Source of the DNA: a virus
Length of the DNA: 64,000 nucleotides
Virus record (IMG/VR): IMGVR_UViG_3300045988_179760
Direction: 5' to 3' (one strand)
The position numbers were made by a program, and so were the translations under genes. Within the stretch, counting starts at the first letter, position 1; the number at the start of each line of letters is the position of its first letter. Shown one piece after another: positions 1,286 to 60,506 of the stretch. The notes below the pieces were generated by a model. That model had not been told where the DNA came from. It ran no database searches and worked only from the letters and a program-made list of their open reading frames with translations.

Positions 1286-1304
1286 TGTGGACGTTTCTAG
1301 TATA
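1286..1304 (-). promoter_or_regulatory. degenerate copy of the conserved promoter-like motif (tgtggacgtttctagtata)
   Basis: Matches the TATACTnGAAnnGTCCACA variant consensus, upstream of the exonuclease gene start. Confidence 0.4.
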
Positions 1305-1308
1305 ACGC

Positions 1309-1579
1309 CTATTTGGTGATGGCCTTGACACGCCCGTCCAGAACCGTTCTCACGACATCCTCGAAGTCCGTGCCGTCAGGCAATAGGTGGGAGTCTTGGA
1401 GGGTTCCGATAATCTTCAACAGTTCCGTATGCCCGTGCGGAGTGCGCTTATAGTCGCGGGTCGCACCCGCCTTGTATGCGCGACGCAACTGCAACGCCAA
1501 CTGCTCCCGTGTGAGCGTGATGAAGTCTCCTTCCTCGATGGGATACCGTTCTTCCAGTTCTTCGTTGAGAATGCTCATT
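1309..1579 (-). CDS. hypothetical protein (start probably MSILNEELEE)
   Basis: ORF 1309..1623. An internal Met with an AAAGGAAAAA RBS avoids overlap with the upstream gene. Confidence 0.5.
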
Positions 1580-1603
1580 TTTTTGTTTTTCCTTTCTGTT
1601 TTT

Positions 1604-1999
1604 TCAGACGTACATTCCCTCATGCCAGCCGTGTAGCAAACCCCATTCGGATAGTTTCCGGAACCATTTCTCGCATTCGTCAGCCACCTTGTTGGGATAA
1701 TCCAACGTCGGGTTCACGTTGAGTAAATACTGGTAGTCGTAGGGTTGGCAGAAGTTCTCGTCCAACACGTCAATCTGCCAGTCGCTACCGTCCTTGGCAA
1801 TCTCGACATTCAATGTCATGTCATGGTCGGGGGAGACTGAACGGCAGAGGTACCAATACCCCTCACGGTGGTCGGTGAACCCCAGTCGGCGCATGGTCGA
1901 ATCTTCGGCGGAACTCATGCTAAGCGCCGCATTGTTCTGATGCTTCGTGTAGGTGACGCCTATGGTCGAGAATCGAGGCGTGTTCTGATTGTCGGACAT
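1604..1999 (-). CDS. hypothetical protein (131 aa)
   Basis: ORF track. RBS AGGAGAGAAC precedes the ATG. Confidence 0.55.
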   Translation of the reverse strand: MSDNQNTPRFSTIGVTYTKHQNNAALSMSSAEDSTMRRLGFTDHREGYWYLCRSVSPDHDMTLNVEIAKDGSDWQIDVLDENFCQPYDYQYLLNVNPTLDYPNKVADECEKWFRKLSEWGLLHGWHEGMYV

Positions 2000-2007
2000 G
2001 TTCTCTC

Positions 2008-2366
2008 CTATTCTTCGCTTTCGCGCAAGTCGATTACCGGAATATGGGTATCGGCGGAATAGTGGACGGAATAAGGGTCGATTGTCCTATGCCGCCAACT
2101 GACACCACCTTCCACCGGCCAAGCCAACCAGCTTATGCCGTCCAAATAGTTCAGAATGCTGACGTGAGCAATCCAACGGCACCATCTTGCCGGGCATATC
2201 ACGTCGAACATGGGAGTATCCTCGGTTCCCGGTCGGCAGGAATGCCGTTGCCAAGAACGAAGGCATACGCGGTAGAGCGCATAGGAGTCATATGTTGGCA
2301 GTTCCTTGGTGTCGAATACCGCGCGAGTTGGGTGGTCATCGAAGAGGATTCGTTTGCCGAATTTAG
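2008..2366 (-). CDS. hypothetical Cys/Trp-rich protein, probable TTG start
   Basis: The 2008..2571 ORF reads through the promoter motif at 2416-2434. A TTG lies 6 nt after an AAAGGAGGA RBS at 2366. Confidence 0.4.
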
Positions 2367-2415
2367 TTGCTTGATTCAATGCGTCCTCCTTTTTGGGTTT
2401 TGTCTTTGTTTTTGT

Positions 2416-2434
2416 TGTGAACAATCCCACTATA
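2416..2434 (-). promoter_or_regulatory. conserved promoter-like motif copy (tgtgaacaatcccactata)
   Basis: Direct sequence match to the repeated motif, positioned between the GNAT stop and the next gene start. Confidence 0.6.
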
Positions 2435-2467
2435 ACACAAGGGGGTAGAAAAACGCAACACGCAAAC

Positions 2468-2923
2468 CTAAGCCAGCGTCCCGTTAAAAAAGAACTCCCT
2501 CTTCCCAACCCGATACAAACCCACACGAGAGACGGACAGACGAAAATCAAAACGACGGAAGAAACCCTCATACATCGGCAACAACTCTTCCGGCACTGTC
2601 ACCAGAGGGAACCGTTCATCCAGCGATTTCAATGCATATTCGACCAGCGTGGAACCAACCCCTCGACTCCGAAAACCCTCGTAGACATACAAAGTGCAAA
2701 TCTTCCGTTCAGACGGATTTCTCTTGAGAACGCAAAACCCCGCCAACTCACCGTCTATATAGGCTAAAAGAATCACACGGTCTTCCCCCAATGAGGGGAG
2801 AACCGTGCGGTCGAACCAAATATCGAAGCCGGGATAATACGTTCGGATTGTCCCCGGAATGGGAATAGAAGCCGCAGTGCCAGCGTCCCGAACTACACTA
2901 ATCCTCAACGAACTCGAACACAT
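2468..2923 (-). CDS. GNAT family N-acetyltransferase
   Basis: Acetyl-CoA binding-like motif ...LYVYEGFRSRGVGSTLVEYAL..., 151 aa. Confidence 0.7.
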   Translation of the reverse strand: MCSSSLRISVVRDAGTAASIPIPGTIRTYYPGFDIWFDRTVLPSLGEDRVILLAYIDGELAGFCVLKRNPSERKICTLYVYEGFRSRGVGSTLVEYALKSLDERFPLVTVPEELLPMYEGFFRRFDFRLSVSRVGLYRVGKREFFFNGTLA

Positions 2924-3143
2924 GAAAATCCGTCACACGCTCGACGTTGACATGACTCGTATCATCCGGCCAAATATATAAGACCGGCATGTAACCGGAC
3001 AGTTCACGAACTGCGAGATTGCTGAAACCGTCCAAGTAGAGGGTTCCGGCCATGGGTTTGCCGTTCCATTTGAATATCGCGGACTTGCCTTCGAATTCTT
3101 TCCAGTTGATTCCGTCTTGATAGGGAAGTTCTTTTAAGGCCAT
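2898..3143 (-). CDS. hypothetical protein (81 aa)
   Basis: ORF with an AAGGAAAA RBS. A degenerate motif copy lies upstream. Confidence 0.5.
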   Translation of the reverse strand: MALKELPYQDGINWKEFEGKSAIFKWNGKPMAGTLYLDGFSNLAVRELSGYMPVLYIWPDDTSHVNVERVTDFHVFEFVED

Positions 3144-4154: not shown

Positions 4155-4517
4155 CTACAATTCCCTCATGGCCTTGTCTAAATCGGACACAATCGCGTCA
4201 TACAGTCCGTCAACATCCAACGATTCCAGCTTGTGCGACGGCAAATCCACGGGAGTGTATTCCCCGTCGTCGAAAGTCCAATGCTCGACCGAAACCGTGT
4301 ATACTCCTCCACTCCAACGGTAGGAACGTCTGCCGTTATGTTGCGAGTCTGCCACAAGATAGTATTCGAACATCTTGCCCATGTATGGGCATTGGAATGC
4401 GACTTCGATTCCGTCTCCGAAGATGGCGTGGGTGGCGTGTGCGCCGGTCACGTATGGGATTTTGACAAGCTTGTCAATGAGTTTCCGATAGGTGTCTTCG
4501 CTGATTTTCGAGTACAT
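4155..4517 (-). CDS. hypothetical protein (120 aa)
   Basis: ORF track. Lies 10 nt upstream of the next gene (coupled). Confidence 0.5.
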   Translation of the reverse strand: MYSKISEDTYRKLIDKLVKIPYVTGAHATHAIFGDGIEVAFQCPYMGKMFEYYLVADSQHNGRRSYRWSGGVYTVSVEHWTFDDGEYTPVDLPSHKLESLDVDGLYDAIVSDLDKAMREL

Positions 4518-4580: not shown

Positions 4581-4838
4581 TCAGCAACAGTATTCGTTGA
4601 CTGCGTTGACGAGTTCAGCCATGCTCATGCCGTACACGTCGCTGTGGTGGGCGTAGATGTCTTTTGCGAAGAGTCTGTTTTGCATGACGTCGCGGGCTTC
4701 GGCGCTTTGTGCGAGTTTTACGCTTTCGGGGAATGTGCCTGTGGGGTTGTCATTGATTTGTTTGGCGTATTCGATGGCTTGGGCTTTGGGCATTTTCCTT
4801 ACGTTCATTGCGCCGCCGATGTAGTGGATTGCGTACAT
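4581..4838 (-). CDS. hypothetical protein (start MYAIHYIGG)
   Basis: The ORF 4581..4967 N-terminus is the translated promoter motif. The internal Met lies downstream of the motif. Confidence 0.5.
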   Translation of the reverse strand: MYAIHYIGGAMNVRKMPKAQAIEYAKQINDNPTGTFPESVKLAQSAEARDVMQNRLFAKDIYAHHSDVYGMSMAELVNAVNEYCC

Positions 4839-4871
4839 GTTATGTGCTCCTTTTTGCCTATCGCTCTTTGT

Positions 4872-4890
4872 GTGAACAATTCCACTATAG
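4872..4890 (-). promoter_or_regulatory. conserved promoter-like motif copy (tgtgaacaattccactata)
   Basis: Direct match. Confidence 0.6.
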
Positions 4891-4970: not shown

Positions 4971-5936
4971 TCAATCGGACAAACCGGCACGGGCACGCAT
5001 CTTGCGTTTAATCTCGCTACCCTTGGCAAACAAGCGCTCCATACGGGCCACGGTCTGCAACGCCTTCTTATACTCCTCCAATCGAGAAGAGATTTGCCAA
5101 TTACGAGGTTCCGCCAACGACTCCTCAATCAGAGAATCGGGAACATCCCACATAAAGGACATAATCCAACGGCGGTTTTCCCCGCCCATGCGACGCCACA
5201 AGCGCACGGCACGCTTACCTTTGACCCATTCCGGATTATTAAACAAGACTTGGATGGCGGATTCGTCGGAGAGGGAGTCCAGCAATGGGTCTATGTCCGT
5301 TTCTTCCGCCAATGGTGCCGATAGGGCGCGAATGGTTTCGTCTTCGCTTTTTACCCAATGCTCGAAGCAGAGCCTATCGGCCAGCTTGTTTTCCACCATG
5401 TAGCGGATAACGTCGTAATCCGTCTCCTCCCAGTACATGCTTGCAACGGTATGCTTTGCGGCGAGCTTGCGTAGTTCGGGGTCTTTGTCCTTGGCGAGAC
5501 CAATCGCGGTCTTATAGTTAAGCTTTCCCTTGTATTCCAAATAGTCGGCCACTTTGCGGCGAACGTCACGACTCCGGTCTTTCAACACGGTTTCACGCAG
5601 TCCGTCGTATATTTTTCCGTCCTCGATTTTCATGTTGTACTTCAACTTGCAGTTGATGTAGTAGTGACGGAATGGTAGGGGGAGCAGAAATATTCTTCCA
5701 CTCCGGTAGATGTTCTTGATGCTTTCCAGCAGGTCGATTCCCTTGTTGGTAAGCTTCCAACGGTCGTGTTCCTTGGTCAGTTCGATTAGGTTGGCTTCCT
5801 TGATTTTGTCTAAGGGCTTCTGGTCGATGTATGCGCTCAGTCGTTGCGAGTGGGTTTCGTTGTCGAAGTCCTCGAAGTAGTAGACGAGGTTGGCGTTCCA
5901 CTTTTTGGTGAGAGTTTTGATTTCGTTGTTGTCCAT
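4971..5936 (-). CDS. HEAT/ARM-like repeat protein (paralog A)
   Basis: 321 aa. Alignable along its length with the 6385..7326 protein (NYYF, ...IRLxAAKN..., ...EYxxAxxxVxxxxxxF...). Confidence 0.6.
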   Translation of the reverse strand: MDNNEIKTLTKKWNANLVYYFEDFDNETHSQRLSAYIDQKPLDKIKEANLIELTKEHDRWKLTNKGIDLLESIKNIYRSGRIFLLPLPFRHYYINCKLKYNMKIEDGKIYDGLRETVLKDRSRDVRRKVADYLEYKGKLNYKTAIGLAKDKDPELRKLAAKHTVASMYWEETDYDVIRYMVENKLADRLCFEHWVKSEDETIRALSAPLAEETDIDPLLDSLSDESAIQVLFNNPEWVKGKRAVRLWRRMGGENRRWIMSFMWDVPDSLIEESLAEPRNWQISSRLEEYKKALQTVARMERLFAKGSEIKRKMRARAGLSD

Positions 5937-5962
5937 GGTTTCTCCTTTTCTGGTATATCTTG

Positions 5963-5981
5963 TGTGAACAATTCCAGTATA
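5963..5981 (-). promoter_or_regulatory. conserved promoter-like motif copy (tgtgaacaattccagtata)
   Basis: Direct match 20 nt upstream of the 5936 start region. Confidence 0.65.
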
Positions 5982-6384: not shown

Positions 6385-7326
6385 TCAACCAATCTCGCGC
6401 TCGGCACGCTCCCAAATCTTCCGGCGAATCTCACTGTCCTCGGAGAACATCGTACCCAACTCCAACACTTGACGGACAGCTTCTCGGTATTCCTCCAAAC
6501 GGTCATGCAAGGCCATGTACGCGTCGCTTTTGAACGCCTGATTGATGAATGAGTCCGGCATGTCGCGCATGACCTTGACCAGCCTGTAACGTCCCGCCTC
6601 GTCCGCGTTCTCCCAAGCGTTCATGACTCGTTCACGCGTGGCCCACTGCGGCTTGCAGGCCAGTACATGCGCCACATCCTGTGAGTCGAGGCGGGCCAAC
6701 ACTTCATCCACCTTGCCGTCTTCGGTCAGAAGAGCCGCCTGAACGCGAATCTGACTGTTGGGATTGTCCAGCCAATGTTCGACGCATTCCTCATCGAAAT
6801 TATGGTTATAGATAAGAGTCTTGACCACGCGCTCGTCCGACTCCTCGAAGAAGAGGTGAGGGTCTGCGTTCTTTGCCGCCATGAGTCGAATCTGATAATC
6901 CTCGTCGTGGGCCAAACCGTTCGACGTTTCCTTGTCGAGCTTGCTGAACTTGTTGAGCATTGTGGCCGCTTTCTTGCGAATCTCGGCGCTCCTGTCATGT
7001 AGGGCAACTTTGGATAGTTCCTTGACGGGTAGTTTCTTTTCGTCGTATACGCGCCAGTCGAAGTAGTAGTTACGGACTTTCAGGGGTAGTTCGGAGAGTT
7101 TGCCGGAGTTGAAATGCTGTCTGATGTTGGCGAGTTCGTCTTCGCCTGTTTGGGTGAGAGTCCAGTCGCCCGTCTCGTTTTCCTGAATGAGTCCGGCTTT
7201 GGCGAGTTTGGTGATGTCGCGGTCGGGGAATACTCGGCGTTCGGGTTCACGCTCGAATCGCATGAATTCGTAGACTGCGGTTTCGTTCCAGTTGATGTCG
7301 CTCATTTTTTGCTCCTTGGCTTCCAT
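6385..7326 (-). CDS. HEAT/ARM-like repeat protein (paralog B)
   Basis: The first 14 residues of ORF 6385..7368 are the translated motif. True start is MEAKEQKMSD. Paralog of the 4971..5936 protein. Confidence 0.6.
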   Translation of the reverse strand: MEAKEQKMSDINWNETAVYEFMRFEREPERRVFPDRDITKLAKAGLIQENETGDWTLTQTGEDELANIRQHFNSGKLSELPLKVRNYYFDWRVYDEKKLPVKELSKVALHDRSAEIRKKAATMLNKFSKLDKETSNGLAHDEDYQIRLMAAKNADPHLFFEESDERVVKTLIYNHNFDEECVEHWLDNPNSQIRVQAALLTEDGKVDEVLARLDSQDVAHVLACKPQWATRERVMNAWENADEAGRYRLVKVMRDMPDSFINQAFKSDAYMALHDRLEEYREAVRQVLELGTMFSEDSEIRRKIWERAEREIG

Positions 7327-7333
7327 ATTTTTG

Positions 7334-7352
7334 TGTGAACAATTCCAGTATA
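7334..7352 (-). promoter_or_regulatory. conserved promoter-like motif copy (tgtgaacaattccagtata)
   Basis: Direct match. Confidence 0.65.
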
Positions 7353-7431
7353 CAATTTGCTTGGACAAAACACGCTAAAAAACAAAAAAGCGGGAACTAC
7401 AGCAACAAGCCAATAATCCCCGCAAACCCAA

Positions 7432-7650
7432 TCAGCAGACGCTCGCGGAACCATCATCGCAAAGAGAGCATAACAGGCAACCGATGCCGTTAATATCCCT
7501 TGTCAGATGCACGCCCTTGGTGGAGCCGCACTCCTCACAACGAATGCCACTGCGCTTACGAGCGGTATTGGGAGTGCGGGAGAGGGCAGACCCACGACGG
7601 TAGGTTTCCTTCCTTGGCGTGCCTATGACGTATTCCACACCGTCCAACAC
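7432..7650 (-). CDS. small Cys-rich (Zn-ribbon-like) protein
   Basis: CEECGS...CLLCSLC motif, 72 aa. Confidence 0.4.
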   Translation of the reverse strand: MLDGVEYVIGTPRKETYRRGSALSRTPNTARKRSGIRCEECGSTKGVHLTRDINGIGCLLCSLCDDGSASVC

Positions 7651-7659
7651 GAACGGCTT

Positions 7660-7766
7660 GCTGACCTTGACGGTTTTGTTGCGTGTAAGCCCGGTATTTT
7701 AATGCCGGGTTTGCACGCTATGCGTGTTTTTTGTTGATTACTCAAGGTATATGGTATCATATTGGT
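7660..7766 (+). mobile_element. putative left end of the TnpB-only IS (IS1341-like) with subterminal hairpin CCCGGtattttaatGCCGGG
   Basis: Hairpin immediately upstream of the tnpB start, as in IS200/IS605 left ends. Confidence 0.4.
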
Positions 7767-9185
7767 ATGAGCCAAAAAGTACGAATCCTGAAAGTCCGGC
7801 ATGCGGGGTGCAGTGTGTTCCTCGGCTTGGACTCTTACGGGAATCGTATGTGGACTCGTAGTCCGGAACGTATCATGGACTGGTTGTGCGACGGGTGGAG
7901 AAGCCGGTACAACCAGCATAGGGCGCATCGTCCCCAGCGTAGGCTCGTGGAGGATGTCGAAACCCGTGAGCGTATTTGGGTGGACGTGCCTTTGGGCGGC
8001 GCGGATGTGAAGCCCGCAGTCAAGGACAGTCAGGCACGATTGGATTGTCTTTGGCTGGCGTGCATCCCCTCGCCTATCCTCTCCTCGTGCGAACGTGTCG
8101 AGAATACGGGATGGTTCGCCGGATTGAAACGAAAGAAGACCAGTGGTGGCCGGGTTCCGGGTTTCCGTTCCCGTCATAAGGCTCCTCAGTATTTCGTGTG
8201 CTGGCGTAACCAGTCGAAGACCGGTAACGCCTTGTATTATCGGACGGGCAAGCGTGCCGGTGTGGTCGTCATCACGGGCAGTGTGCCGAGACAGTATCGT
8301 CGTGAGGGTGAGAACGAGGCTCGTTGGCGTATCGCCATTCACGTGCGGGTGAGCCAACCCATTCGTGAATATACAAGTGTGGCGGTGAACTGGACGAACA
8401 GGACACTCGTGTTTACCAATAGTCCACTCCCTATCATCCGAACCGATACCGGTATGATGGTCGGTTTGGATAGGGGTTGCGTGCATACCCTCGCCACGTC
8501 GGATGGACTGTTCCTCGACATGCTGCAACCGTCGGCGAAGGAAGTGGACGAGTATAAGCGTCTGCAACGCAAGCTCGCCCGACAGGACAGGACGAACGAG
8601 AAACGTGGCGGCAGGAACGCCAAATTCGCGTCCAAAAGCCGCAAGCGTACTCTCCAAGCCATGCGGAGCATCCAACGTCGGATAGACAATCGCAAGGACG
8701 ATTGGATAGCCAAAACGACCACCATGCTCGTCCGGGAATACGATTTCATCGCCATGGAACGGTTGAACGTGAAAGCCATGAGCCGAAGCGTCCGACCGAA
8801 ACCAGACCCCGACAATCCGGGACATTATCTCCCCAATGGGCGGAAGAGGAAAAGCGGTTTGAACCGTAGCATCCTCGCCAACCGTTGGACTGACCTCCTG
8901 CATTGTCTCGAATACAAAGCCAAGCTTGCGGGAACCCGACTCGTTCAGGTACCCGCCTATGACACGTCACGCATTTGCAACGTCTGCGGATACTGCGACA
9001 AGAACAACCGTGAAAGCCAAGCGGAGTTCCACTGCCACAATTGCGGACATGAGGCGAACGCCGACGTGAACGCGGCCAAGAACATTCTCAACCGCGCTTT
9101 AGAACCGGAAGGCACGGACGATGCCTACGAGTGGAGACAACAAGCTTCCACACTGGTGAAAACCGATGGGAAGCAACGTCGATGA
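7731..9185 (+). CDS. tnpB: IS605/IS1341-family TnpB (OrfB) RNA-guided nuclease-like transposase accessory protein
   Basis: RuvC-I motif GLDRGCVHTLATSDG, a RuvC-II/III region, and a C-terminal zinc finger CNVCGYC...HCHNCGHEANADVNAAKNI. The start may be MSQKVRIL at 7767. Confidence 0.85.
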   Translation: MLITQGIWYHIGMSQKVRILKVRHAGCSVFLGLDSYGNRMWTRSPERIMDWLCDGWRSRYNQHRAHRPQRRLVEDVETRERIWVDVPLGGADVKPAVKDSQARLDCLWLACIPSPILSSCERVENTGWFAGLKRKKTSGGRVPGFRSRHKAPQYFVCWRNQSKTGNALYYRTGKRAGVVVITGSVPRQYRREGENEARWRIAIHVRVSQPIREYTSVAVNWTNRTLVFTNSPLPIIRTDTGMMVGLDRGCVHTLATSDGLFLDMLQPSAKEVDEYKRLQRKLARQDRTNEKRGGRNAKFASKSRKRTLQAMRSIQRRIDNRKDDWIAKTTTMLVREYDFIAMERLNVKAMSRSVRPKPDPDNPGHYLPNGRKRKSGLNRSILANRWTDLLHCLEYKAKLAGTRLVQVPAYDTSRICNVCGYCDKNNRESQAEFHCHNCGHEANADVNAAKNILNRALEPEGTDDAYEWRQQASTLVKTDGKQRR

Positions 9186-9300
9186 AACTCAAACCCCTGC
9201 AATACCGGTCGGAATCTCTTCCATTAAAAAACATTAAGAAAGACACGTCCGACCGGCAACAGGAATCACGGGATTTCAATCCCGTGAGGAAGTCAAGATG
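9186..9300 (+). ncRNA. candidate TnpB right-end / omega-RNA scaffold region
   Basis: Hairpin CACGGGAtttcaaTCCCGTG lies just 3' of the tnpB stop. IS605-family omegaRNAs derive from this position. Confidence 0.3.
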
Positions 9301-9469
9301 TTCACGTGAGACACCTCGCCGTTGGCTTTGAATACCGGGAACTCGTCGGTTTCACCAGCCTCGCTCCAATTGTCCCACCACTCTTTCGGGATTCGGACTT
9401 TCCAACCGTCCTTTAGCTTCGTCCAAATCGGACGGGGTTCGGTCTTGGCGTCTTCGATAGTTTCACTCA
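9276..9469 (-). CDS. small hypothetical protein (MSETIEDAKTEPRPIW...)
   Basis: Internal Met of ORF 9276..9689 with an AAAGGACAAAAA RBS. Confidence 0.4.
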
Positions 9470-9481
9470 TTTTTTGTCCTT

Positions 9482-9859
9482 TCAGCGAGTGTATCCGATT
9501 TTCCTCAGCACATGGTCTTCGGGGTCGGAGAGATGCTTGATGACCTCTTCCGGCGTAAGGCTGATTCTCTTCGTGTGGAGCAGGGGTTGGAACGAGCAAG
9601 TGCGGAGGAACTTCGTGACCACGCCGTCTCTGCTCATGCGGGAGGGAATCTTCTGGTTTCGATACTGGCGGTAGGTGAAGCGGAGCCAACGAATCGCCTG
9701 TTTCGAATCGATGGTCTTCACATGGGGATTATCAGCGTAGGCTTTCACCCAGTTATTGCGTTCGGTGGCGCTGTGGAAAATCTGGATTAGTGGAATGTTG
9801 TTGTCAGGGTCGAGCTTCTGGTTGGGATGGTTGACTATGGCGGCGTAGTAGGTGTTCAT
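9482..9859 (-). CDS. hypothetical protein (start MNTYYAAIVNHPNQ)
   Basis: ORF 9482..9967 trimmed to the first Met downstream of the motif at 9889-9907. Confidence 0.5.
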   Translation of the reverse strand: MNTYYAAIVNHPNQKLDPDNNIPLIQIFHSATERNNWVKAYADNPHVKTIDSKQAIRWLRFTYRQYRNQKIPSRMSRDGVVTKFLRTCSFQPLLHTKRISLTPEEVIKHLSDPEDHVLRKIGYTR

Positions 9860-9888
9860 GGGTTGCTCCTTTTGTAGACCAAGTTTTT

Positions 9889-9907
9889 GTGTGAACAATC
9901 CCAGTAT
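9889..9907 (-). promoter_or_regulatory. conserved promoter-like motif copy (tgtgaacaatcccagtata)
   Basis: Direct match. Confidence 0.65.
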
Positions 9908-10320
9908 ATATTCAAGAATAGCAATCACGCAAGTCGGCACGTCAAAACAAACTACCCAATCACACAAAAACCAGCAAGCCTATCAATGCAATAATCGACA
10001 GATAGGCCAGAACCATAAGAGACAATCCAACCCGCAGACCCCATCCCCAAGCCAATACGCGAGAATCGTTCTCCCTACCGACCTCTTCCATTTTGCGGCT
10101 CCAAGCCTGAACCTTATCGGTCAACTCGTTCTGCGTGAGCCAATTGCCGTCACGGTCGAACGGGCTAGGCTGATACGGCAGGTAGAAGAATCCCCTCCAT
10201 ATCCAATGGTGGCAATGCCGGATACGGTGGAATATTATGCCGCCAGATTTGCGCGGAACGGCGCAACCCCATACGGAACGCCGGATTACGCACCGTGTCC
10301 AATAAACCCATTTTCTACTC

Positions 10321-10731
10321 CTATCGAAAAGTTAACGGCTCTTCGCCTATCCTCACAAGCAACTCGTTCAGTTCAGGTATGAGAATATCCGTTCCAAGCG
10401 CTTCAACATCATGTTTGGTGAGGTAGAACACTTGCCCGTCCTTGTAACGCAACATGCCGTCAGTGTCGAACGATAGGCTTTCGAACATGGTTTCGACCAT
10501 ATCCCAGAACAGGCTTCCGAACTGCTCTTTAGTCCGTTCGTCATGCAGAACCGTGTACACCGCGCGGGAATACTGTTCACCGCGTTTCAAATCCTTGTTC
10601 AGGCAACGTTCGCAACGATGGCATCCGTCCAAGTCTTTCATGCAGTCGGAGCATAACGGTCGGGAGCATTCGGGGCAGAGGATAGTCCACTTGTTTGTTT
10701 TGCAGATTGCGCAGATTCCGTTGTTCAGCAC
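10321..10731 (-). CDS. Zn-finger protein (CAICKTNKWTILCPECSRPLCSDCMKDLDGCHRCERC)
   Basis: Eight-Cys treble-clef/RING-like N-terminus, 136 aa. Confidence 0.5.
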   Translation of the reverse strand: MLNNGICAICKTNKWTILCPECSRPLCSDCMKDLDGCHRCERCLNKDLKRGEQYSRAVYTVLHDERTKEQFGSLFWDMVETMFESLSFDTDGMLRYKDGQVFYLTKHDVEALGTDILIPELNELLVRIGEEPLTFR

Positions 10732-10781
10732 GTCGAATGCTCCTTACCGTAGTGGGTGTGATTGCTTCCAGATTAACTCAA

Positions 10782-11504
10782 TCAGTCCAACGGTTTGCCG
10801 CGTCCGACAATCTTCTTACCGTCCGCGTTCCGCAACCATGCCAAGCCGTGACCATAGGAAACAACACCAGCTTTGACGGTCGGATTCTGCTGGAACGTGT
10901 AATAAACTTCCACCAGTCCGCCGCCACCGTTCGCTTGCAGAATACGAATCCTGTAATCCTTTTCCACGGCTTTGACGGCCATATCCCGTTCGAGTTCATC
11001 AAACCAACCGTAAAGTGGGAGCATGGCGAAAGCGGCTAATACTCCTACGGTGATGAACCGCCAATATGTTTTGGCCCCTACCAGTAGGGCGATTACCGCC
11101 ACGAGAACGCCGATGATGGCGATTCCGGCCACGAGCTGGCGCCAATTGCCGTTGCAATCGTATTCGACGGGAGCATAGGGATTGGTGAGGGTCGGCGCGG
11201 ATTTGACGGGTTTTGACTGTTTGTGTGGGATGGTCGGCCTGTAGGTCTTCGGCTCTTTCGTGGACACGGTTTCGGTCTTTGCTTTAGGTTCCGTCTTGAC
11301 TGTAGGGTCGTTCTTCGGTTCGACGGGCTTAGGAACGTTCTTCTTTTCAGCTTCCACGGGCGGTGCCGGTGGTTTCAACATTTTCCGTTCCGTCTCTTTG
11401 ACCACTCTTTGAAGTTCGATGGTGGTGGACGAGTCGGGTTCGTCCATCGGTTCCTGACCTAACATCATGAGGTCGTTTTCCAGCGAGACATCCCGTTCTT
11501 TCAT
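10782..11504 (-). CDS. membrane protein with Pro/Lys-rich linker and one TM segment
   Basis: Hydrophobic stretch AGIAIIGVLVAVIALLVGA. Low-complexity PAPPVEAEKK region. Confidence 0.5.
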   Translation of the reverse strand: MKERDVSLENDLMMLGQEPMDEPDSSTTIELQRVVKETERKMLKPPAPPVEAEKKNVPKPVEPKNDPTVKTEPKAKTETVSTKEPKTYRPTIPHKQSKPVKSAPTLTNPYAPVEYDCNGNWRQLVAGIAIIGVLVAVIALLVGAKTYWRFITVGVLAAFAMLPLYGWFDELERDMAVKAVEKDYRIRILQANGGGGLVEVYYTFQQNPTVKAGVVSYGHGLAWLRNADGKKIVGRGKPLD

Positions 11505-11589
11505 ACAAGGCTTCCTTTCTTTTTTGTCGGATATGAGAGAGGGGAGAAGCGGTCTGGATGACGCTTCTCCCCGAGGCTTTTAGCATAGG

Positions 11590-11886
11590 TCAGAGGATTC
11601 GGGTTCCCTTGCGGGTGACGAGCATGATTCTGTTTTCGTAGCGGTTCTCGAAAACGTCCCAGTTGCCGCTCAGGACAGCCAAGCACACATTGCCTTTGAT
11701 GAGGTTCCAACGTTCGTCGCAGTTGGATACGACGTGCTTCCAGTTGATTGGATTGGGCTTGTGGTGGGAGGTTTCCACGATGGCTTCGGTCATAGGCCTG
11801 TCTGCGTAGGCGTGGTCGTAGGTGTTGTCACTCGCGACGATGCTGATGGTGCCGTTGTCGAATGCGATTGGCTGGATGGTGTTCAT
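11590..11886 (-). CDS. hypothetical protein (start MNTIQPIAFDNG)
   Basis: ORF 11590..11940 trimmed so the start lies downstream of the motif at 11926-11944. Confidence 0.5.
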   Translation of the reverse strand: MNTIQPIAFDNGTISIVASDNTYDHAYADRPMTEAIVETSHHKPNPINWKHVVSNCDERWNLIKGNVCLAVLSGNWDVFENRYENRIMLVTRKGTRIL

Positions 11887-11925
11887 GTTTTCTCCTTTTG
11901 TTGTTGTGAGGCCGAACCCTTTTTG

Positions 11926-11944
11926 TGTGGACATGACCACTATA
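11926..11944 (-). promoter_or_regulatory. conserved promoter-like motif copy, variant (tgtggacatgaccactata)
   Basis: Match to the CACTATAACACA subfamily. Confidence 0.5.
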
Positions 11945-11996
11945 ACACATGGTCTGAAATATCACAATACGAAAAACAAAAAATGCCGACCAGCGC

Positions 11997-12188
11997 CTAG
12001 AAGCGGAAGACCAAGCCCTGCGCCCTGACGAAAGACCTCAGAGCCTTCGGGGGGGGGTCGAGGATGGTTCCCCCGTGTTCGTGGGTATACTGTTCGGCGC
12101 TCTCAAGCGAAGTTAAGAGTGTGAGCTGGTCTTCGTATTCGACTGGCCACACCTGCTGTGTCTGCTGGTAGGCGTGTTCTATATACAT
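11997..12188 (-). CDS. small hypothetical protein (63 aa)
   Basis: ORF track. Motif 12216-12234 lies immediately upstream. Confidence 0.45.
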   Translation of the reverse strand: MYIEHAYQQTQQVWPVEYEDQLTLLTSLESAEQYTHEHGGTILDPPPKALRSFVRAQGLVFRF

Positions 12189-12215
12189 GTTGTTCTCCTT
12201 TTTAAATGGTTTTTG

Positions 12216-12234
12216 TGTGGACGATTCCAGTATA
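12216..12234 (-). promoter_or_regulatory. conserved promoter-like motif copy (tgtggacgattccagtata)
   Basis: Direct match. Confidence 0.6.
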
Positions 12235-12313
12235 CCACAGAGGGATAATGCAAAAATCCCTCACTGCACAGCCGCAAAAAGCTAAACCCGTCGAATCCAA
12301 CGGGTTTAGAATC

Positions 12314-12709: not shown

Positions 12710-12718
12710 GTGAGTTCG

Positions 12719-12976: not shown

Positions 12977-12993
12977 TGTCAAGTCCTCTTTCG

Positions 12994-13383: not shown

Positions 13384-13416
13384 GGTCTAACTCCTATTCA
13401 ATGGCTTTCTGTTTTT

Positions 13417-13435
13417 GTGTGAACGATTCCAGTAT
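13417..13435 (-). promoter_or_regulatory. conserved promoter-like motif copy (tgtgaacgattccagtata)
   Basis: Direct match. Confidence 0.65.
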
Positions 13436-16795: not shown

Positions 16796-16798
16796 ACA

Positions 16799-55608: not shown

Positions 55609-56478
55609 TCAGGATACGAACGGGTTCATCGGCTCTTCATCATCCGCCACGCCCGCGTCCGTGTCGGCATCATCGTTAGCCGACTGGATGGAAGGAAGAC
55701 TGGGACGGACTATGACACCGGTTTCCGTGATTTCGGCTTTCAATTCCGGCCATGCGAGCTGAATCTTCTCCAACGCTCTTCTGAACTTGCGTCTGAATTC
55801 ACGCATCGGATACCCGTCGTACTTGAACTGCATCAACAAGGCTTCCCATGTCACGCGCGTCTCATGGCGCATGGCATGGGCACGGAACGCGAGCCACTGG
55901 TATACGTCCAACGCGAGGGCATCGTTGCGAAGCTGGCGAACGATGGATGGGTTGAGAGGAACGCAGTTCTCGGTCAGCAGTGCCCACATCTCGGGGGAGA
56001 ACTTTATGTAAGACTTCTTCGCCCCGTCATCGTCGTAGTTGAGTGACACTATGTTGGCAACGAAGAAAGAGTGGGCTGTGAATCCGCCAGTGGACCAGTT
56101 TTCAAGGACGATGGAGGTTGTCGCTAGATTCCTGACCATGTTCATCACCGTCTCCTTGCTGGACCCTGAATAGTGGATTCCAGTGCTCTTGCAGAATGAA
56201 CGATAGGTGTCGTCCAAGTAGACGGTATGATTCTCTGCGTCCACACAGTCGCTACTGTTCTTGATGAGAGAACGGATGTGGATGAGGAACATTCTGGGGG
56301 CTGCTCCGTATGCCCATTCTCCGGTGGAGGCCGAGACTGTGATTGACGAGTTTCCGTTAATTTTTCTCATGGACTGAGATTCCGGTTTCGACTGCGGCAG
56401 GAAACTCAGCTTAGACATAACCGACGGCGTGTAGTTGTATGTATTCGACTTGTAGAGGTCTTTGCTATGATTGGTCAT
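55609..56478 (-). CDS. repA: plasmid replication initiator RepA (iteron-type theta replicon)
   Basis: Block ALDVYQWLAFRAH typical of RepA_C initiators. Adjacent iterons and AT-rich region. Confidence 0.7.
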   Translation of the reverse strand: MTNHSKDLYKSNTYNYTPSVMSKLSFLPQSKPESQSMRKINGNSSITVSASTGEWAYGAAPRMFLIHIRSLIKNSSDCVDAENHTVYLDDTYRSFCKSTGIHYSGSSKETVMNMVRNLATTSIVLENWSTGGFTAHSFFVANIVSLNYDDDGAKKSYIKFSPEMWALLTENCVPLNPSIVRQLRNDALALDVYQWLAFRAHAMRHETRVTWEALLMQFKYDGYPMREFRRKFRRALEKIQLAWPELKAEITETGVIVRPSLPSIQSANDDADTDAGVADDEEPMNPFVS

Positions 56479-56718: not shown

Positions 56719-56784
56719 AAAGTGGGCACTTTCGACACGGAAAGTGGGCACTTTCGACACGGAAAGTGGGCACTTTCGACACGC
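56719..56784. repeat. three tandem 22-bp iterons (AAAGTGGGCACTTTCGACACGG)
   Basis: Perfect copies at 56719, 56741 and 56763 (the last ends ACGC), plus a partial fourth copy. Confidence 0.85.
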
Positions 56785-56799: not shown

Positions 56800-57115
56800 C
56801 CTACTCCCATAAGGGATTTCGACACCTGCAAAAGATATACAAAAGATTACAAAAGATATTAATATCCCTTGTATTCCCTTCTTTTTCAAAAAACAAGTTT
56901 TTCAAAAAGAAGCAAAAAATCAAAAAATTAGAATAAAACCATTTTTTTGATTCTACGTTCAGACAGGTCTAAACCTGCTTAAGGGTATCTTCAAAGCTTT
57001 TAAGAAAAAAAGTCATGTCAATATGACCGTTCAGACAGGGTGAACCCTGAGCGACGATTATCCTCAATGCTGTTTTTCGTTTCAACAACGTTGGCGTTTA
57101 GACAGGTCTGAATGT
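56800..57115. promoter_or_regulatory. AT-rich putative origin of replication with three CGTT(C/T)AGACAGG boxes
   Basis: Roughly 70% AT stretch. Boxes at 56956, 57027 and 57095, each followed by a short inverted repeat (cagg..cctg). Confidence 0.5.
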
Positions 57116-57282
57116 TTTCGAGGGAAGAGAGAAAAAGAAAAGTTCCGGAAAAAGAAAAACAGAGAAGCCAGCACGGCCGGTGGATGCATGTCGAAAACCC
57201 CGAAGCCGATATAGGAAACCTCGGACGGAAGGTAGACTTGAAGACAGTGCATGACAAACGGAAATGAATTCGGAGCGGAACT

Positions 57283-58563: not shown

Positions 58564-58738
58564 TCCGAAAGGAAAACTAAATTGACAGGACATAACAAGC
58601 CCAGTGAGGGTGACAAGTTCGCTGAGTTCATCAACAGCAATGGCCCGTTGACCGGTGCGATTATCGCCATCGCGTTCATCGTGTGTCTCGTCATCAGCAT
58701 CATCCTGAACCTGTGATGAGTTTTTTTGGAGGTTTCCT

Positions 58739-59764
58739 ATGGCTAAGAAGAAAGGCGGCATGTCCGCCGGTTCGTTGATTGGCAGCATTCTGGTCGTGTT
58801 GACGGCCATGGTGCTCATCGTGAATCTGGGATTGTGGACTCCCATGTCGAAGATTTTCGGATTGCCGGAAATCAACAGTCTATCCCAGTTGATGCCGGGT
58901 GAGGATTCCAAGGTAAAGCCGGATGTGAAATTGGGGTTGAAGGAGCCTTCCTTGAAGTCGTCCGGCTCCAATTCGCAAACCAATACTCCAGAAGCCACAG
59001 AAACGCCCTCAGAAACGACGCAGACACAAAACGGGGACAATTCCTCAAGTCAAACACAAAAAGCCTCTACAAGCGTTCCTGAAGGTGCTTTAAGCCCCAT
59101 CACCACGAAACAGGCGCTTGACAAACTCGCTGACATCGAAACCGCAACCCCGCACACCAAAGGATACAACCGCAAAACCGACTTCGGCACATGGCAGAAC
59201 AGCAACCAGCTCTGCGGTTACGGCACCACCCGCGACTACATCCTCAAACGCGATATGACCGACGTGACCATGGACAAGAATTGCAAGGTGCTCACCGGCA
59301 CCCTCCAAGACCCATATACAGGCAATGTCATCAAATTCCAGCGCGACACCTACGAGACCGTCAACGGCAAACAGAAGAAAACAGGCGGAGACAGTATGGC
59401 CGTCCAAATCGACCATGTGGTGGCGGTCAACGACGCTTGGGCCAGCGGACTGTGGAAGGACTCGCGCAAGGGCGACCGCATCACCTATGCGAACGACCCG
59501 GAAGTGCTCGTCGCGTCCGAAGGAGAAGCGAACAACATCAAACAGCAGGGCGTGAACCTTGTTAAGGACGAGGCGTTGAACGGTTCCTCGACCAAGTGGA
59601 AGGACGCAACGCCCAGCATTTGGCTCCCGTCCAACAAGACGTACCAATGCTCGTATATGGCTAAACGCGTGTACATCAAAGACAAGTACAAACTGTCCAT
59701 GAGCAGTTGGGAGAAGGCCGAAACGAAGTCGTTCCTCACGCAATGCGTGGCCGACGGCAACTGA
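58739..59764 (+). CDS. membrane-anchored extracellular HNH/His-Me-finger nuclease-like protein (DUF1524-type)
   Basis: N-terminal TM anchor, then ...GYNRKTDFGTWQNSNQLCGYGTTRDYILKRD... and QIDHVVAVNDAW, characteristic of the DUF1524/GmrSD-C nuclease fold. Confidence 0.5.
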   Translation: MAKKKGGMSAGSLIGSILVVLTAMVLIVNLGLWTPMSKIFGLPEINSLSQLMPGEDSKVKPDVKLGLKEPSLKSSGSNSQTNTPEATETPSETTQTQNGDNSSSQTQKASTSVPEGALSPITTKQALDKLADIETATPHTKGYNRKTDFGTWQNSNQLCGYGTTRDYILKRDMTDVTMDKNCKVLTGTLQDPYTGNVIKFQRDTYETVNGKQKKTGGDSMAVQIDHVVAVNDAWASGLWKDSRKGDRITYANDPEVLVASEGEANNIKQQGVNLVKDEALNGSSTKWKDATPSIWLPSNKTYQCSYMAKRVYIKDKYKLSMSSWEKAETKSFLTQCVADGN

Positions 59765-59925
59765 TTTTGGTTAGAAAAACTTTTCCTGTTTTTCCGGTTT
59801 TTCACCAGATGAATGTTCGAAGTCGTTTACTGTAACAGTTGAGACCGGGTTTTCGTGGTATATCTTCCACCATCTGGTTTCTTCCCCGGTCTCTGTGGAA
59901 AGCTCCTCTCGGGGAGTGTGTTTCG

Positions 59926-59970
59926 GGTTCCGCCACCCGTGTGTGGATTCTTTTTTTGGGTGGCGGAACC
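59926..59970. other. perfect 13-bp inverted repeat GGTTCCGCCACCC-N19-GGGTGGCGGAACC
   Basis: Seen directly in sequence. The loop contains T7. Confidence 0.7.
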
Positions 59971-60018
59971 ATTTCCTTTCCTAATCGGCATTGTGGCGAT
60001 TCGAGAAGAAAATGATGT

Positions 60019-60037
60019 TATACTAGAAGTGTTCACA
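60019..60037 (+). promoter_or_regulatory. plus-strand copy of the conserved promoter-like motif (TATACTAGAAGTGTTCACA)
   Basis: Match in the + orientation, 34 nt upstream of the ATG at 60071. Confidence 0.6.
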
Positions 60038-60070
60038 CAATAATAGAAAAAGCCAGCCAAGGAGAAAAAC

Positions 60071-60442
60071 ATGAGCAACTACTTCAACAGCATCGAACAC
60101 CAAATCAACCTCATGCTCGACAGGGAACAAGACCTCCAAGACGAACAGGAACAGCGTCTACGGGATATTCACGACGGCATCGGAGACTACGTGCTGTTGC
60201 CCGAAGGCGACCCGTGGAACATCGATGACTACGAGCAAGACCCACAGCCCACCAACATCAACAACACTTGCAGTCACGGACTCTATGTTGACGAAGGTGT
60301 GAAATCTGGAACCATGTATCATCTCAACCCCGACCTCGGACTGTGGGCGGCTTGCGACGACTACGAGGACATAGAAAAAATGGTCAGGGAAGGCAAGACG
60401 CTCACCCAGCCCATCGACGATTACGATTCGAAGCTCGCCTGA
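60071..60442 (+). CDS. acidic hypothetical protein (123 aa)
   Basis: ORF track. RBS AAGGAGAAAAAC. Confidence 0.5.
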   Translation: MSNYFNSIEHQINLMLDREQDLQDEQEQRLRDIHDGIGDYVLLPEGDPWNIDDYEQDPQPTNINNTCSHGLYVDEGVKSGTMYHLNPDLGLWAACDDYEDIEKMVREGKTLTQPIDDYDSKLA

Positions 60443-60487
60443 GAAAGAATTTTTCCTGCAACCTTCCTTGTTTGCGAAAAACTACGT

Positions 60488-60506
60488 TATAGTGGAACCA
60501 GTCACA
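60488..60506 (+). promoter_or_regulatory. plus-strand copy of the conserved motif (TATAGTGGAACCAGTCACA)
   Basis: Variant match, upstream of the next plus-strand gene. Confidence 0.5.

Follow-up and report, generated by a model that had tools for sequence, protein, structure and literature searches.

A short sequence recurs in front of many small genes in a 64,000-nt stretch of DNA (hereafter, the window) from the IMG/VR virus record IMGVR_UViG_3300045988_179760, raising the question of what this repeat is and what reads it. A scan of the window for the consensus TATACTGGRATYGTTCACACAAA with up to three mismatches yielded 14 matches, compared to none in 100 dinucleotide-preserving shuffles. 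A position weight matrix (PWM) trained on 16 copies and applied at a threshold of 8 bits recovered 16 strong sites (29-45 bits; 14 on the minus strand and two on the plus strand) and three weak ones (12.5-14.2 bits; 3155(-), 32868(-), and 60488(+)). The weak sites are borderline by score alone, as the best score over 20 shuffles was 12.9 bits. The copy at 37207(-) is degenerate and fell under the PWM threshold, yet a repeat search placed 37199-37233 in the family at 71% identity to the reference. All 19 coordinates listed in the original prediction lie inside motif sites; the weak copy at 32868(-) was absent from that list (Table 1).

Table 1. Copies of the promoter motif in the window, with the genes that follow them and, where identified, the corresponding loci of megaplasmid pMP7017.
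Feature	Position	Strand	Score (bits)	Downstream genes and context	pMP7017 counterpart
Motif promoter TATACTAGAAACGTCCACACATTCA	1280-1304	-	29.0	3'-5' exonuclease gene 674-1258 (RNase_T domain)	Orthologue 82026-82622, motif at 81979
Motif promoter, TATAGT variant	2410-2434	-	35.5	Gene 2008-2379; AAGGAGG RBS, TTG start	
Weak copy TAGAGTGAGATAGCCCACACCAAAA	3155-3179	-	12.5	2898-3143 and GNAT gene 2468-2923 (GNAT domain found), a TacA/TacT-like pair	
Motif promoter	4865-4889	-	39.7	Gene 4581-4838; terminator-like hairpin 4957-4925 just upstream	
Motif promoter	5957-5981	-	38.5	Gene 4971-5936 (321 aa, HEAT-like, weak HEAT match)	
Motif promoter	7328-7352	-	45.3	Gene 6385-7305; one arm of L064 recombination junction	
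Motif promoter	9884-9908	-	43.7	Genes 9482-9859 and 9276-9470	
Motif promoter, TATAGT variant	11920-11944	-	32.7	Gene 11590-11886	
Motif promoter	12210-12234	-	42.3	Gene 11997-12188; terminator 12309-12282 upstream	
Motif promoter	13412-13436	-	44.0	12994-13383 (acidic, 129 aa) and HTH_17/excisionase-like gene 12719-12976 (HTH_17 domain)	
Motif promoter	13778-13802	-	42.0	Gene 13499-13714; longest leader; terminator 13871-13849 upstream	
Motif promoter	14121-14145	-	42.6	Gene 13885-14085; hairpin upstream in ssDNA fold	
Motif promoter	15132-15156	-	41.8	Genes 14611-15105 and 14219-14596; terminator 15212-15181 upstream	
Motif promoter	16069-16093	-	41.8	DUF2786/DUF7168 gene 15218-16042 (Pfam domains); other arm of L064 junction	DUF2786 orthologue 27466-28245, motif at 28266
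Motif promoter, first of the array	16536-16560	-	40.8	16196-16510; divergent from AAA+ ATPase gene 16798-17955	Same divergent arrangement: motif 173701, ATPase 173878-175044
Weak copy CATAGTGGGTACGCCCACAAAAAAG	32868-32892	-	14.2	32468-32854; directly after dnaB	
Degenerate copy TAAGCTGACCTCGCCCACACAAAAC	37199-37233	-		36390-36941 and neighbours; repeat family D1, 71% identity; divergent promoter pair with 37300(+)	Same divergent pair, 56046(-)/56120(+)
Motif promoter	37300-37324	+	36.1	Small membrane-peptide ORF (start near 37369) and gene 37614-37994	Orthologous promoter at 56046
Motif promoter	60019-60043	+	36.8	Gene 60071-60442	Orthologue 34788-35150, motif at 35172
Weak copy TATAGTGGAACCAGTCACAAACAAG	60488-60512	+	13.9	Gene 60525-60857	Orthologue 35792-36070, likewise weak copy at 36094

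The motif is tied to gene starts rather than to random positions: a ribosome-binding site (RBS) and a start codon lie downstream of every site in the matching orientation. The distance from the motif end to the start codon is mostly 22-46 nt, so the proposed 25-45 nt was roughly right, but not "each time", as there is a single outlier of ~65 nt at 13780. In the array at 1-17 kb, 15 motif promoters serve 29 predicted genes and nearly all co-directional gaps of at least 81 nt contain one. The units are short, many are bracketed by terminators, and their products are mostly small, acidic, and unannotated. A supposed variant subfamily, CACTATAACACA, turned out to be the reverse complement of TGTGT plus TATAGTG and belongs to the same family, its -10 box reading TATAGT. 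We confirmed that some 20 gene units of this plasmid-like element are headed by a 23-base box of promoter plus first transcript bases.

The motif family has already been published. Dineen et al. (2024; Microb Biotechnol 17:e14405, PMC10832533) described a 34-bp motif, AWAYATGY-TATACT-GAATATGTCCACATAAAAWA, in the Bifidobacterium breve megaplasmid pMP7017. That motif has RNA-seq support and overlaps the -10 of 19 promoters of highly expressed units, several of them ranking with the most strongly expressed at steady state; it was reported missing from bifidobacterial chromosomes, strong promoters included, and was attributed to a "presumed pMP7017-specific regulon" with no regulator named (PMC10832533). 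The element-wide promoter set of the original prediction agrees with this description. The window is a diverged relative of this conjugative megaplasmid, holding a local sister variant of the motif, TATACTGGRATYGTTCACACAAAA. The DnaB proteins are 54% identical and the backbone is syntenic; the lineages are separate, with proteins 30-59% identical and a nucleotide match only in a TnpB element. The window repeat is very probably homologous to the pMP7017 motif. The PWM gave 26 hits in pMP7017, each upstream of a gene, and in six orthologous gene-promoter pairs the motif was 54-83% identical, compared to a background of 20-42% in the upstream 60 nt. At the 37300 promoter, the corresponding values were 83% and 20%. 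In pMP7017 as well as in B. callitrichidarum, the motif precedes a DUF2815 gene, with proteins just 31% identical. One pMP7017 copy, 120545(+), has no ORF behind it and faces a tRNA array, indicating that the element is not translation-specific.

The motif is restricted to the element family of the window and pMP7017. Among 185,579 species, each represented by one genome, multiple exact hits were found in B. callitrichidarum only, and the motif was present on many IMG/VR contigs of 100-217 kb. No capsid or terminase genes were found among the window proteins scanned, though IMG/VR lists the contigs as viral. Neither CRISPR guides nor TnpB guides were supported as the identity of the motif.

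The anatomy of the motif was drawn from 148-183 non-redundant copies on many related contigs, with the transcription start (+1) predicted. The layout comprises TTG (-35), a 17-bp spacer, TG, TATACT followed by G, a semi-variable 5-nt gap, and a nearly invariant G-T-Y-C-A-C-A-Y-A-A-A (block 2), which occupies predicted +1 to +11 exactly. Among 172 copies selected by block 2 alone, the hexamer was TATACT in 122 and TATAAT in none; C was found at -8 in 146/172 and G at -6 in 157/172. The T and G at -15 and -14 were present in 109 and 123 copies, respectively, and each of -35 and -34 was T in 90; -1 was a pyrimidine in 152/172, and +1 was G in 167/172. Conversely, 131 copies selected by the -10 block alone (~19 expected by chance) carried C+4 (120/131), A+5 (118/131), C+6 (128/131), and A+7 (129/131). 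The -10 register is rigid, with a TAnnnT-like hexamer 5-7 nt upstream in 233 of 254 distinct block-2 copies, while leader length varies (median 38 nt, 5th-95th percentiles 25-53 nt). The earlier description of the conserved unit as a -10 box joined to the start of the transcribed sequence holds: an invariant purine follows the hexamer by 7 nt via the fixed 5-nt gap. The accompanying statement that the upstream flank is not conserved holds only in part: the flank does contain a weak -35 TTG, at a spacing of 17 bp, and an extended -10 TG.

These features identify the repeats as promoters of the kind read by the host housekeeping sigma factor. If the motif instead served a sigma factor or single-subunit RNA polymerase of the element's own, comparable to the 23-bp T7-type promoter, this would account for how long and sharply bounded the conserved block is and for a TATACT that is invariant though non-consensus. 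However, the -35 TTG and extended -10 TG were enriched without being selected for, pointing to the host housekeeping holoenzyme, and no such domain was detected among ~70 predicted window proteins. Two large Pfam-less proteins are unlike polymerases (one is a membrane-anchored, Walker-motif protein similar to a coupling ATPase, and the other is similar to a membrane T4SS protein), and no sigma factor or polymerase of this kind is annotated in pMP7017. We therefore regard a dedicated sigma factor, as suggested earlier, or polymerase as very unlikely. Even less probable are single-strand (Frpo-like) promoters firing on the transferred strand in a recipient, also suggested earlier. Arrays of small, mostly acidic genes do resemble plasmid leading regions, but eight 150-nt regions folded as ssDNA were no stabler than shuffles (z -1.5 to +1.1), robust folding was confined to upstream terminators, and the motif and -35 region lay outside long hairpins. 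The architecture is that of normal double-strand promoters, which are active in established cells in pMP7017 (PMC10832533).

Ordinary promoter rules appear to fail for C at -8 and for the near-invariant T-Y-C-A-C-A-Y-A-A-A at +2 to +11, kept in fixed register 5 nt after TATACTG. Our best explanation overall, with a probability of roughly 0.45, is that these form a putative cis site for an element-encoded factor, which would sit on the DNA across the -10 box and transcription start and bind ~20 window promoters (26 in pMP7017) into a single regulon. Such a regulon would cover establishment and accessory genes such as the exonuclease and DUF2786 genes, joined in pMP7017 by ssb, methyltransferases, Lar, and cas genes. 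The factor would most likely damp or time expression, as global repressors do on other conjugative plasmids. If it represses, it does so loosely, since several pMP7017 motif promoters are highly expressed in steady state. That some element-encoded trans factor reads the motif is probable; that the motif is specifically a DNA operator is more tentative, at somewhat less than even odds. As C-8 and G-6 are absent from the RNA, the constraint must operate at least partly at the DNA level. The short site lacks symmetry, with neither the dyad nor the direct repeat that dimeric repressors use, and an operator would not need the rigid -10 register, for which an RNA element at the 5' end, or RNA polymerase itself, would account. 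No DNA-binding protein common to the window and pMP7017 was found in a search of 64 kb of the ~220-kb replicon, coverage that makes this weak evidence. The Xis-like HTH protein at 12719-12976, proposed as a candidate, does not fit a universal factor, being present only in close relatives of the window and missing from pMP7017.

The register and the position of block 2 would also suit an ordinary promoter whose transcripts all begin with the same 11 nt (G-U-Y-C-A-C-A-Y-A-A-A). This tag would be recognised at the RNA level, whether by a protein or small RNA of the element or by an RNA-decay enzyme of the host, giving a plasmid-wide post-transcriptional regulon. Block 2 starts exactly at predicted +1, and its distance is rigid to the -10 box and variable to the RBS. 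The two degenerate positions, when left unconstrained in selecting copies, are pyrimidines in 182/183 and 171/183 copies, and U and C both pair with G, but transition-biased drift or protein readout would equally give this pattern. In 148 folded leaders, +5 to +11 were predicted to be unpaired at 0.85-0.96, compared to 0.63 for the remaining leader, and five pMP7017-type contigs conserve, in the intercistronic leader after the dnaB operon, a copy of block 2 that has no recognisable -10 box. Such a tag leaves the invariant C-8 and the missing TATAAT unexplained, as those bases are untranscribed; no complementary RNA or RNA-binding protein was found, Rfam gave no hit in the window, and we know of no precedent on bacterial plasmids. 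We consider it rather unlikely.

Doubtful to a greater degree is a module without a dedicated factor, in which the -10, discriminator, and initial transcribed sequence simply make a strong, precisely starting promoter for host polymerase, kept uniform by expression selection and recombination among copies, and spread with gene cassettes. The upstream features all obey housekeeping-promoter rules, and the pMP7017 copies are among the most active. Copies do recombine: relative L064 (99.8% identical) lacks window 7355-16030, with the junction within the shared leader and motif, and of 46 homology-block endpoints, 18 fall no more than 45 nt from a motif, compared to 10% expected (p = 1.7e-7). In phage T5, early promoters have conserved transcribed regions that affect promoter clearance. 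Nevertheless, C+6 and A+7 are kept in ~98% of copies over lineages with saturated flanks, which exceeds known initial-transcribed-sequence effects; the consensus hexamer TATAAT is never seen; and the motif is reported missing from bifidobacterial chromosomes (PMC10832533) and is absent from the genomes of other species.

The asymmetric block could instead contain the target of one of the element's many DNA methyltransferases, in which case established DNA would differ in expression from DNA that has just been transferred and is unmethylated or hemimethylated. Asymmetric 6-7 bp sites are characteristic of type IIL and type I enzymes, and pMP7017 encodes several methyltransferases, orphan and type IIL, some of them downstream of motif promoters. 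With no methyltransferase gene detected among the scanned window proteins and a conserved block longer than a typical methylation site, we give this switch very little chance. Between an operator at the transcription start, a 5'-terminal RNA tag, and an intrinsic initial-transcribed element, the operator is most likely.

The closest known system is pMP7017 itself. The two elements share the core and register TATACT-G-N5-GTYCACAYAAAA over the -10 box, <60 bp from start codons. Each replicon carries tens of copies, the backbones are related, and orthologous genes (exonuclease, DUF2786, and four backbone genes) follow the motif in both. They differ in consensus (GAATAT-GTCCACAT in pMP7017, GGRATY-GTTCACAC in the window); of the upstream AWAYATGY, the window keeps TG alone, and the leader to the RBS (AATCGAAAGAGGAAA) is conserved in pMP7017 but not in the window.

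Operator networks of conjugative plasmids, namely KorA/KorB of IncP RK2 and the CUP repeat promoters of the IncN pKM101 leading region under ArdK/ArdR, likewise place one short sequence at many promoters, overlapping the core promoter, and join maintenance, establishment, and anti-restriction genes in one regulon. Their operators are palindromic with identified repressors, and CUP repeats are ~100 bp or longer, whereas the window site is asymmetric and locked to the predicted transcription start, and its regulating factor is putative. Near-identical early promoter families in phages (T5 and T7 early, the SPO1 host-takeover module, and phiC31 early) also put many small uncharacterised genes each behind the same strong promoter with terminators between, and in T5 conservation reaches into the transcribed region; the window element, in contrast, is related to a conjugative plasmid and lacks capsid and terminase genes among the scanned proteins. 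Like the window motif, mycobacteriophage L5 stoperators and cluster K start-associated sequences are asymmetric 13-bp-class sites in dozens of copies, found in short intergenic regions and always in the orientation of transcription. Stoperators are promoter-independent and block elongation, whereas the present motif follows a -10 box at a fixed distance of 5-7 nt in 92% of copies.

The window was scanned with a PWM built from 16 copies of the repeated motif, which consists of a -10 box (TATACT), a gap of five bases (N5) and a second block, GTYCACAYAAA, at predicted positions +1 to +11 (block 2; positions are numbered from the predicted start). The scan returned 16 strong sites of 29–45 bits, set apart from all else, and three weak sites at 3155(-), 32868(-) and 60488(+). 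The copy at 37207(-) is a degenerate member that belongs to repeat family D1. As the PWM recovers the sites and 37207(-) falls in this repeat family, the 19 coordinates of the original prediction are all real; 32868(-) is an additional copy, giving a total of 20 copies in 64 kb. The sequence TATACTGGRATYGTTCACACAAA had 14 matches in the window at ≤3 mismatches versus zero in 100 shuffles. A tie to gene starts, also predicted, was confirmed at every window site by an AGGAG-type ribosome-binding site (RBS) and a start codon downstream on the same strand. The 1–17 kb array contains 15 motif promoters for 29 predicted genes, with the motif in almost all co-directional gaps of ≥81 nt, and a hairpin with a T-run lies upstream of several window motif promoters. 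The proposed CACTATAACACA subfamily is not separate: it is the reverse complement of the TATAGT version of the motif with TGTGT in front.

By its proteins, the window is related to the conjugative Bifidobacterium breve megaplasmid pMP7017 but has diverged from it. The DnaB proteins share 54% identity, and window 37–60.5 kb is syntenic with pMP7017 56–35 kb. The syntenic stretch encodes a ParA/TadZ-like ATPase, an 886-aa coupling-type ATPase, a 1318-aa membrane protein, ParA, a RepA_C protein, a DUF1524 nuclease and T4SS components, mostly at 30–59% identity (up to ~70% for two small T4SS-region proteins). Neither the 886-aa nor the 1318-aa protein has a Pfam match; the former is similar to a coupling ATPase and the latter to a membrane T4SS protein, and both are homologues of products of pMP7017 conjugation genes. 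At the nucleotide level, a distant search found a single plasmid match, the TnpB element (88% identical to a B. longum megaplasmid), and a phage database search found none. No capsid or terminase domains were seen among the window proteins scanned. DNA near-identical to the window is catalogued in IMG/VR as viral contigs, and the IMG/VR loci L019–L130 of our set of relatives, from contigs of 100–217 kb that carry the motif many times, are likewise catalogued as viral genomes. The exact DnaB sequence was found in 533 blocks of the sequence collection and on contigs of 215–230 kb, the longest of which came from several ENA metagenome assemblies. Features of the window and its relatives are collected in the table.

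Coordinates of features in the window and in related plasmids (L-numbers denote loci of relatives; L002 and L003 are stretches of pMP7017)
Feature	Window	Relative	Remark
Orthologous motif gene, exonuclease			window and pMP7017
Orthologous motif gene, DUF2786			window and pMP7017
Orthologous motif gene	60071	pMP7017 34788	
Orthologous motif gene	60525	pMP7017 35792	copy weak in both
Orthologous motif gene	37614	pMP7017 55527	
Orthologous motif promoter			divergent from AAA+ ATPase gene in window and pMP7017
GNAT acetyltransferase gene with small upstream gene	2468-3143(-)		the two genes overlap and look like a TacA/TacT-type toxin-antitoxin pair driven by weak copy 3155
SPFH/Band_7 gene	31458-32854(-)		two ORFs (128 aa and 341 aa), perhaps frameshifted, as most metagenomic relatives have one 465-aa gene; weak copy 32868 just upstream
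First TnpB gene (IS200/IS605-type)	7731-9185(+)		with flanks (7666-9301), sole stretch with B. longum megaplasmid nucleotide match; interrupts small-gene array
Second TnpB gene (IS200/IS605-type)	62871-63995(+)		
Reverse transcriptase gene (RVT_1, 409 aa)	19949-21178(-), with 18063-19678		two unannotated genes downstream; between small-gene array and pilus/sortase cluster; could be a defence-type or retron-type RT
Direct repeat, 167 nt	21360-21526 and 22149-22315		84% identical, 789 nt apart; adjoins DUF6273 gene
RepA_C gene	55609-56478(-)		
Tandem 22-bp repeats (AAAGTGGGCACTTTCGACACGG)	56719-56784		three, perfect or near-perfect, upstream of RepA_C gene; like the direct repeats bound by RepA at its own promoter in pMP7017
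Spaced repeats	56956-57116		three further repeats upstream of RepA_C gene
L064 junction arms	7302-7352 and 16039-16093	L064:640-840	
Motif promoter facing tRNA array		pMP7017 120545-120569(+) (L003:20545-20569)	abuts start codon of replication gene on opposite strand
Block-2 copy (GTCCACATAAA) without recognisable -10 box		L002:10372, L025:6868, L079, L121, L126	kept after dnaB operon; CCACAATCCACAACAACT in front, then RBS and ATG
CRISPR arrays		pMP7017 (L002) 67.7-68.3 kb and 72.6-73.5 kb	
Matches of self-matching I-E spacers		pMP7017 (L002) 81718-81750 and 4383-4411	33/33 nt and 28/29 nt

When the PWM was applied to pMP7017, as the original prediction had suggested for related plasmids, it found 26 sites, each upstream of an RBS and start codon. 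The motif precedes six orthologous genes in both the window and pMP7017. In these six pairs the motif is 54–83% identical, while the 60 nt upstream are at background (20–42%), and on these alignments its presence in both plasmids reflects homology, not convergence. In Bifidobacterium callitrichidarum TRI 5, which represents a third lineage, the motif reads TATACTG-N5-GTCCACACAAA. A DUF2815 gene lies behind the motif in both B. callitrichidarum and pMP7017, with proteins just 31% identical. When 185,579 species were scanned with one genome apiece, more than one exact match was found only in B. callitrichidarum, on contigs of 33–178 kb (plasmid or chromosome); elsewhere matches were singletons.

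The constraint on each base was assessed on motif copies from IMG/VR, where a scan found the motif in at least 112 stretches, from contigs as long as 217 kb. Removal of copies with flanks ≥80% identical left 148–183 independent copies, and sites were selected in three ways, to free the reading of every position from selection bias. When only block 2 was used for selection (n = 172), the -10 box was TATACT in 122 copies, TATAGT in seven, TATATT in six, TACACT in six and TATAAT in none, with C at -8 in 146 and G at -6 in 157. The same set showed an extended -10 (T at -15 in 109, G at -14 in 123), a -35 TTG at a 17-bp spacer (T at -35 and T at -34 in 90 each), a pyrimidine at -1 (152) and G at +1 (167). 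Selection on the -10 block only (n = 131, ~19 of these sites being expected by chance) gave C+4 in 120, A+5 in 118, C+6 in 128 and A+7 in 129. The third selection (n = 183), which left positions 12–14 and 19–22 free, gave T+2 in 177, a pyrimidine at +3 in 182 and at +8 in 171, and A at +9, +10 and +11 in 168, 149 and 154, respectively. A TAnnnT-like hexamer was located 5–7 nt upstream in 233 of 254 distinct block-2 copies, and the RBS and start codon were a median of 38 nt downstream of the predicted +1. The five bases between the blocks are semi-conserved, and freely variable in B. callitrichidarum. The -35 element, spacer, TG, TAnnnT, G-rich discriminator, -1 pyrimidine and +1 purine are all as expected of a housekeeping promoter of the sigma-70 type. 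Ordinary promoter rules do not explain what is left over: the exclusive C at -8 and the T-Y-C-A-C-A-Y-A-A-A at +2 to +11, a block conserved at least as strongly as the -10 box.

We tentatively propose that the motif is a cis site read by an element-encoded factor, which would act on DNA over the -10 box and start point and would tie the motif promoters into a single regulon of establishment and accessory genes. We assign this operator reading a probability of about 0.4. It draws on the constraint at C-8, which is not transcribed, on the motif's occurrence in this plasmid family only, and on precedents for plasmid-wide operators such as KorA/KorB in RK2 and CUP/ArdK in pKM101. The original interpretation finds support in part, as a promoter and start region with an element-wide regulon, and not in its single-strand promoter and dedicated sigma factor. 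A classical repressor at the site is disfavoured. The site is asymmetric, with no dyad above 3–4 bp of the KorA/KorB or ArdK operator type on inspection of the consensus, and the N5 gap differs between lineages. A register exact to the nucleotide and high steady-state activity are further evidence against a repressor: pMP7017 motif promoters are active in established cells by steady-state RNA-seq, several highly so.

Asymmetry, register and activity also keep two other explanations alive. The first, which we consider unlikely, is a 5'-terminal RNA tag. In its full form, every regulon transcript, including non-coding ones, would begin with the same 11-nt G-U-Y-C-A-C-A-Y-A-A-A, to be read by an element-encoded factor; this version seems distinctly doubtful. 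If true, a ~200-kb conjugative element would label its own mRNAs and regulate them together post-transcriptionally, and we know of no such leader-tag system in bacterial plasmids. Folding of 148 leader RNAs predicted CACAYAAA to be unpaired at 0.85–0.96 versus 0.63 elsewhere, and the leaders, from +1 to the start codon, measure 25–53 nt (5th–95th percentiles), a variability which argues that block 2 is fixed to the transcription start and not to the RBS. Leader RNA structure and RBS sequestration were rejected, as block 2 is mostly unpaired and lies at a variable distance from the RBS. Translation-specific roles were examined too: one motif promoter of pMP7017, 120545(+), has no ORF behind it and faces an 18-gene tRNA array. 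The replication gene has a published start 131 nt upstream (PMC8313286); if that start is used, the 120545(+) transcript may be antisense to the rep leader. The second explanation is an intrinsic initial-transcribed element, in which block 2 would need no reader. We regard it as improbable, and each remaining mechanism as highly improbable.

Candidates for a protein acting at the putative operator were sought among ~70 predicted window proteins, and no sigma factor, polymerase or shared DNA-binding protein was found. A dedicated sigma factor or phage-type polymerase was rejected on this lack of a domain and on the -35 TTG and extended -10 TG of the promoters. The HTH_17 protein (12719-12976), put forward earlier as Xis-like, has the only clear DNA-binding domain within the 64-kb window, and was rejected as a universal regulator, being absent from pMP7017 and confined to close relatives of the window. 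The HTH, ImmA and HigA genes of pMP7017 were not found in the window-type sequences examined. Its WhiB is common only to B. callitrichidarum, and no WhiB-like ORF adjoins the homologous neighbour gene in L110, a relative. The AAA+ ATPase (16798-17955) was rejected as a regulator; its similarity to Orc1/Cdc6/DnaA is only weak and makes a replication-related role more likely.

Other readings of the motif itself were also rejected. Single-strand (Frpo/ssi) promoters, raised in the original prediction, are not supported: 150-nt ssDNA folds at eight sites were no stabler than shuffles (z -1.5 to +1.1), and the motif lay outside any stable stem. A search of Rfam 15 gave no match at gathering score anywhere in the window. 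CRISPR interference by the I-E system of pMP7017, a plasmid whose PLSDB gene table lists no cas3, was dismissed as zero of 25 spacers share a 10-mer with the motif. For TnpB/TldR-like RNA-guided binding, the right-end flank of the first TnpB near 9300 shares only TGTTCAC with the motif; the gene is on the plus strand and its guide region has no match. By eye, TCACA/CCACA has no partner half-site that would make it CRP-like, LexA-like or omega-heptad-like, in comparison with the consensus sequences of those three families.

The motif also marks sites of rearrangement. L064 (IMGVR_UViG_3300045988_175724), a relative 99.8% identical to the window, lacks window 7355-16030 (~8.7 kb), which holds a TnpB element and eight motif units, and its junction falls inside the RBS, leader and motif common to the 7328 and 16069 promoters. 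Among 46 distinct endpoints of homology blocks between the window and its relatives, 18 were within 45 nt of a motif (10% expected, p = 1.7e-7), an enrichment to be read knowing that intergenic regions are module borders anyway. Together, the junction and the enrichment indicate that the repeated promoter is also a recombination joint for the gain and loss of cassettes.

Bifidobacteria of the infant and adult gut commonly carry these megaplasmids, and about a quarter of the coding capacity of pMP7017 depends on this promoter type. The motif itself is already known; new here is the cross-lineage dissection of its bases and spacings, which narrows a 34-bp motif to two blocks, TATACTG and +1 to +11, and yields specific mutations and spacing changes for tests. 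With bases and spacings defined, the hunt for the regulator, whether a protein or an RNA, can be planned directly. Metagenomes can be screened for this plasmid family with the motif as a practical marker, and the motif may also provide a portable strong promoter for Bifidobacterium genetics.

The 34-bp promoter motif of pMP7017 was described in a transcriptome study by Dineen et al. 2024 (PMC10832533), at six highly expressed genes first and 13 more afterwards. It was predicted to drive 56 genes (24% of coding capacity), termed a presumed pMP7017-specific regulon, and was read as a likely transcription-factor site, present in related plasmids and reportedly absent from bifidobacterial chromosomes (PMC10832533). 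No regulator is named there, and we found no later paper extending that work. The window version matches the published motif, AWAYATGY-TATACT-GAATATGTCCACATAAAAWA, and this match to a described motif, together with the 26 PWM sites in pMP7017, makes it the sister-lineage version of that motif. As in pMP7017, many copies stand ahead of comparable genes on a related megaplasmid and overlap the -10 box near translation starts. The two consensus sequences share the core TATACTG-N5-GTYCACAYAAA and differ mainly at positions 7–11, 14 and 19, and of the upstream AWAYATGY of pMP7017 only the TG is retained in the window.
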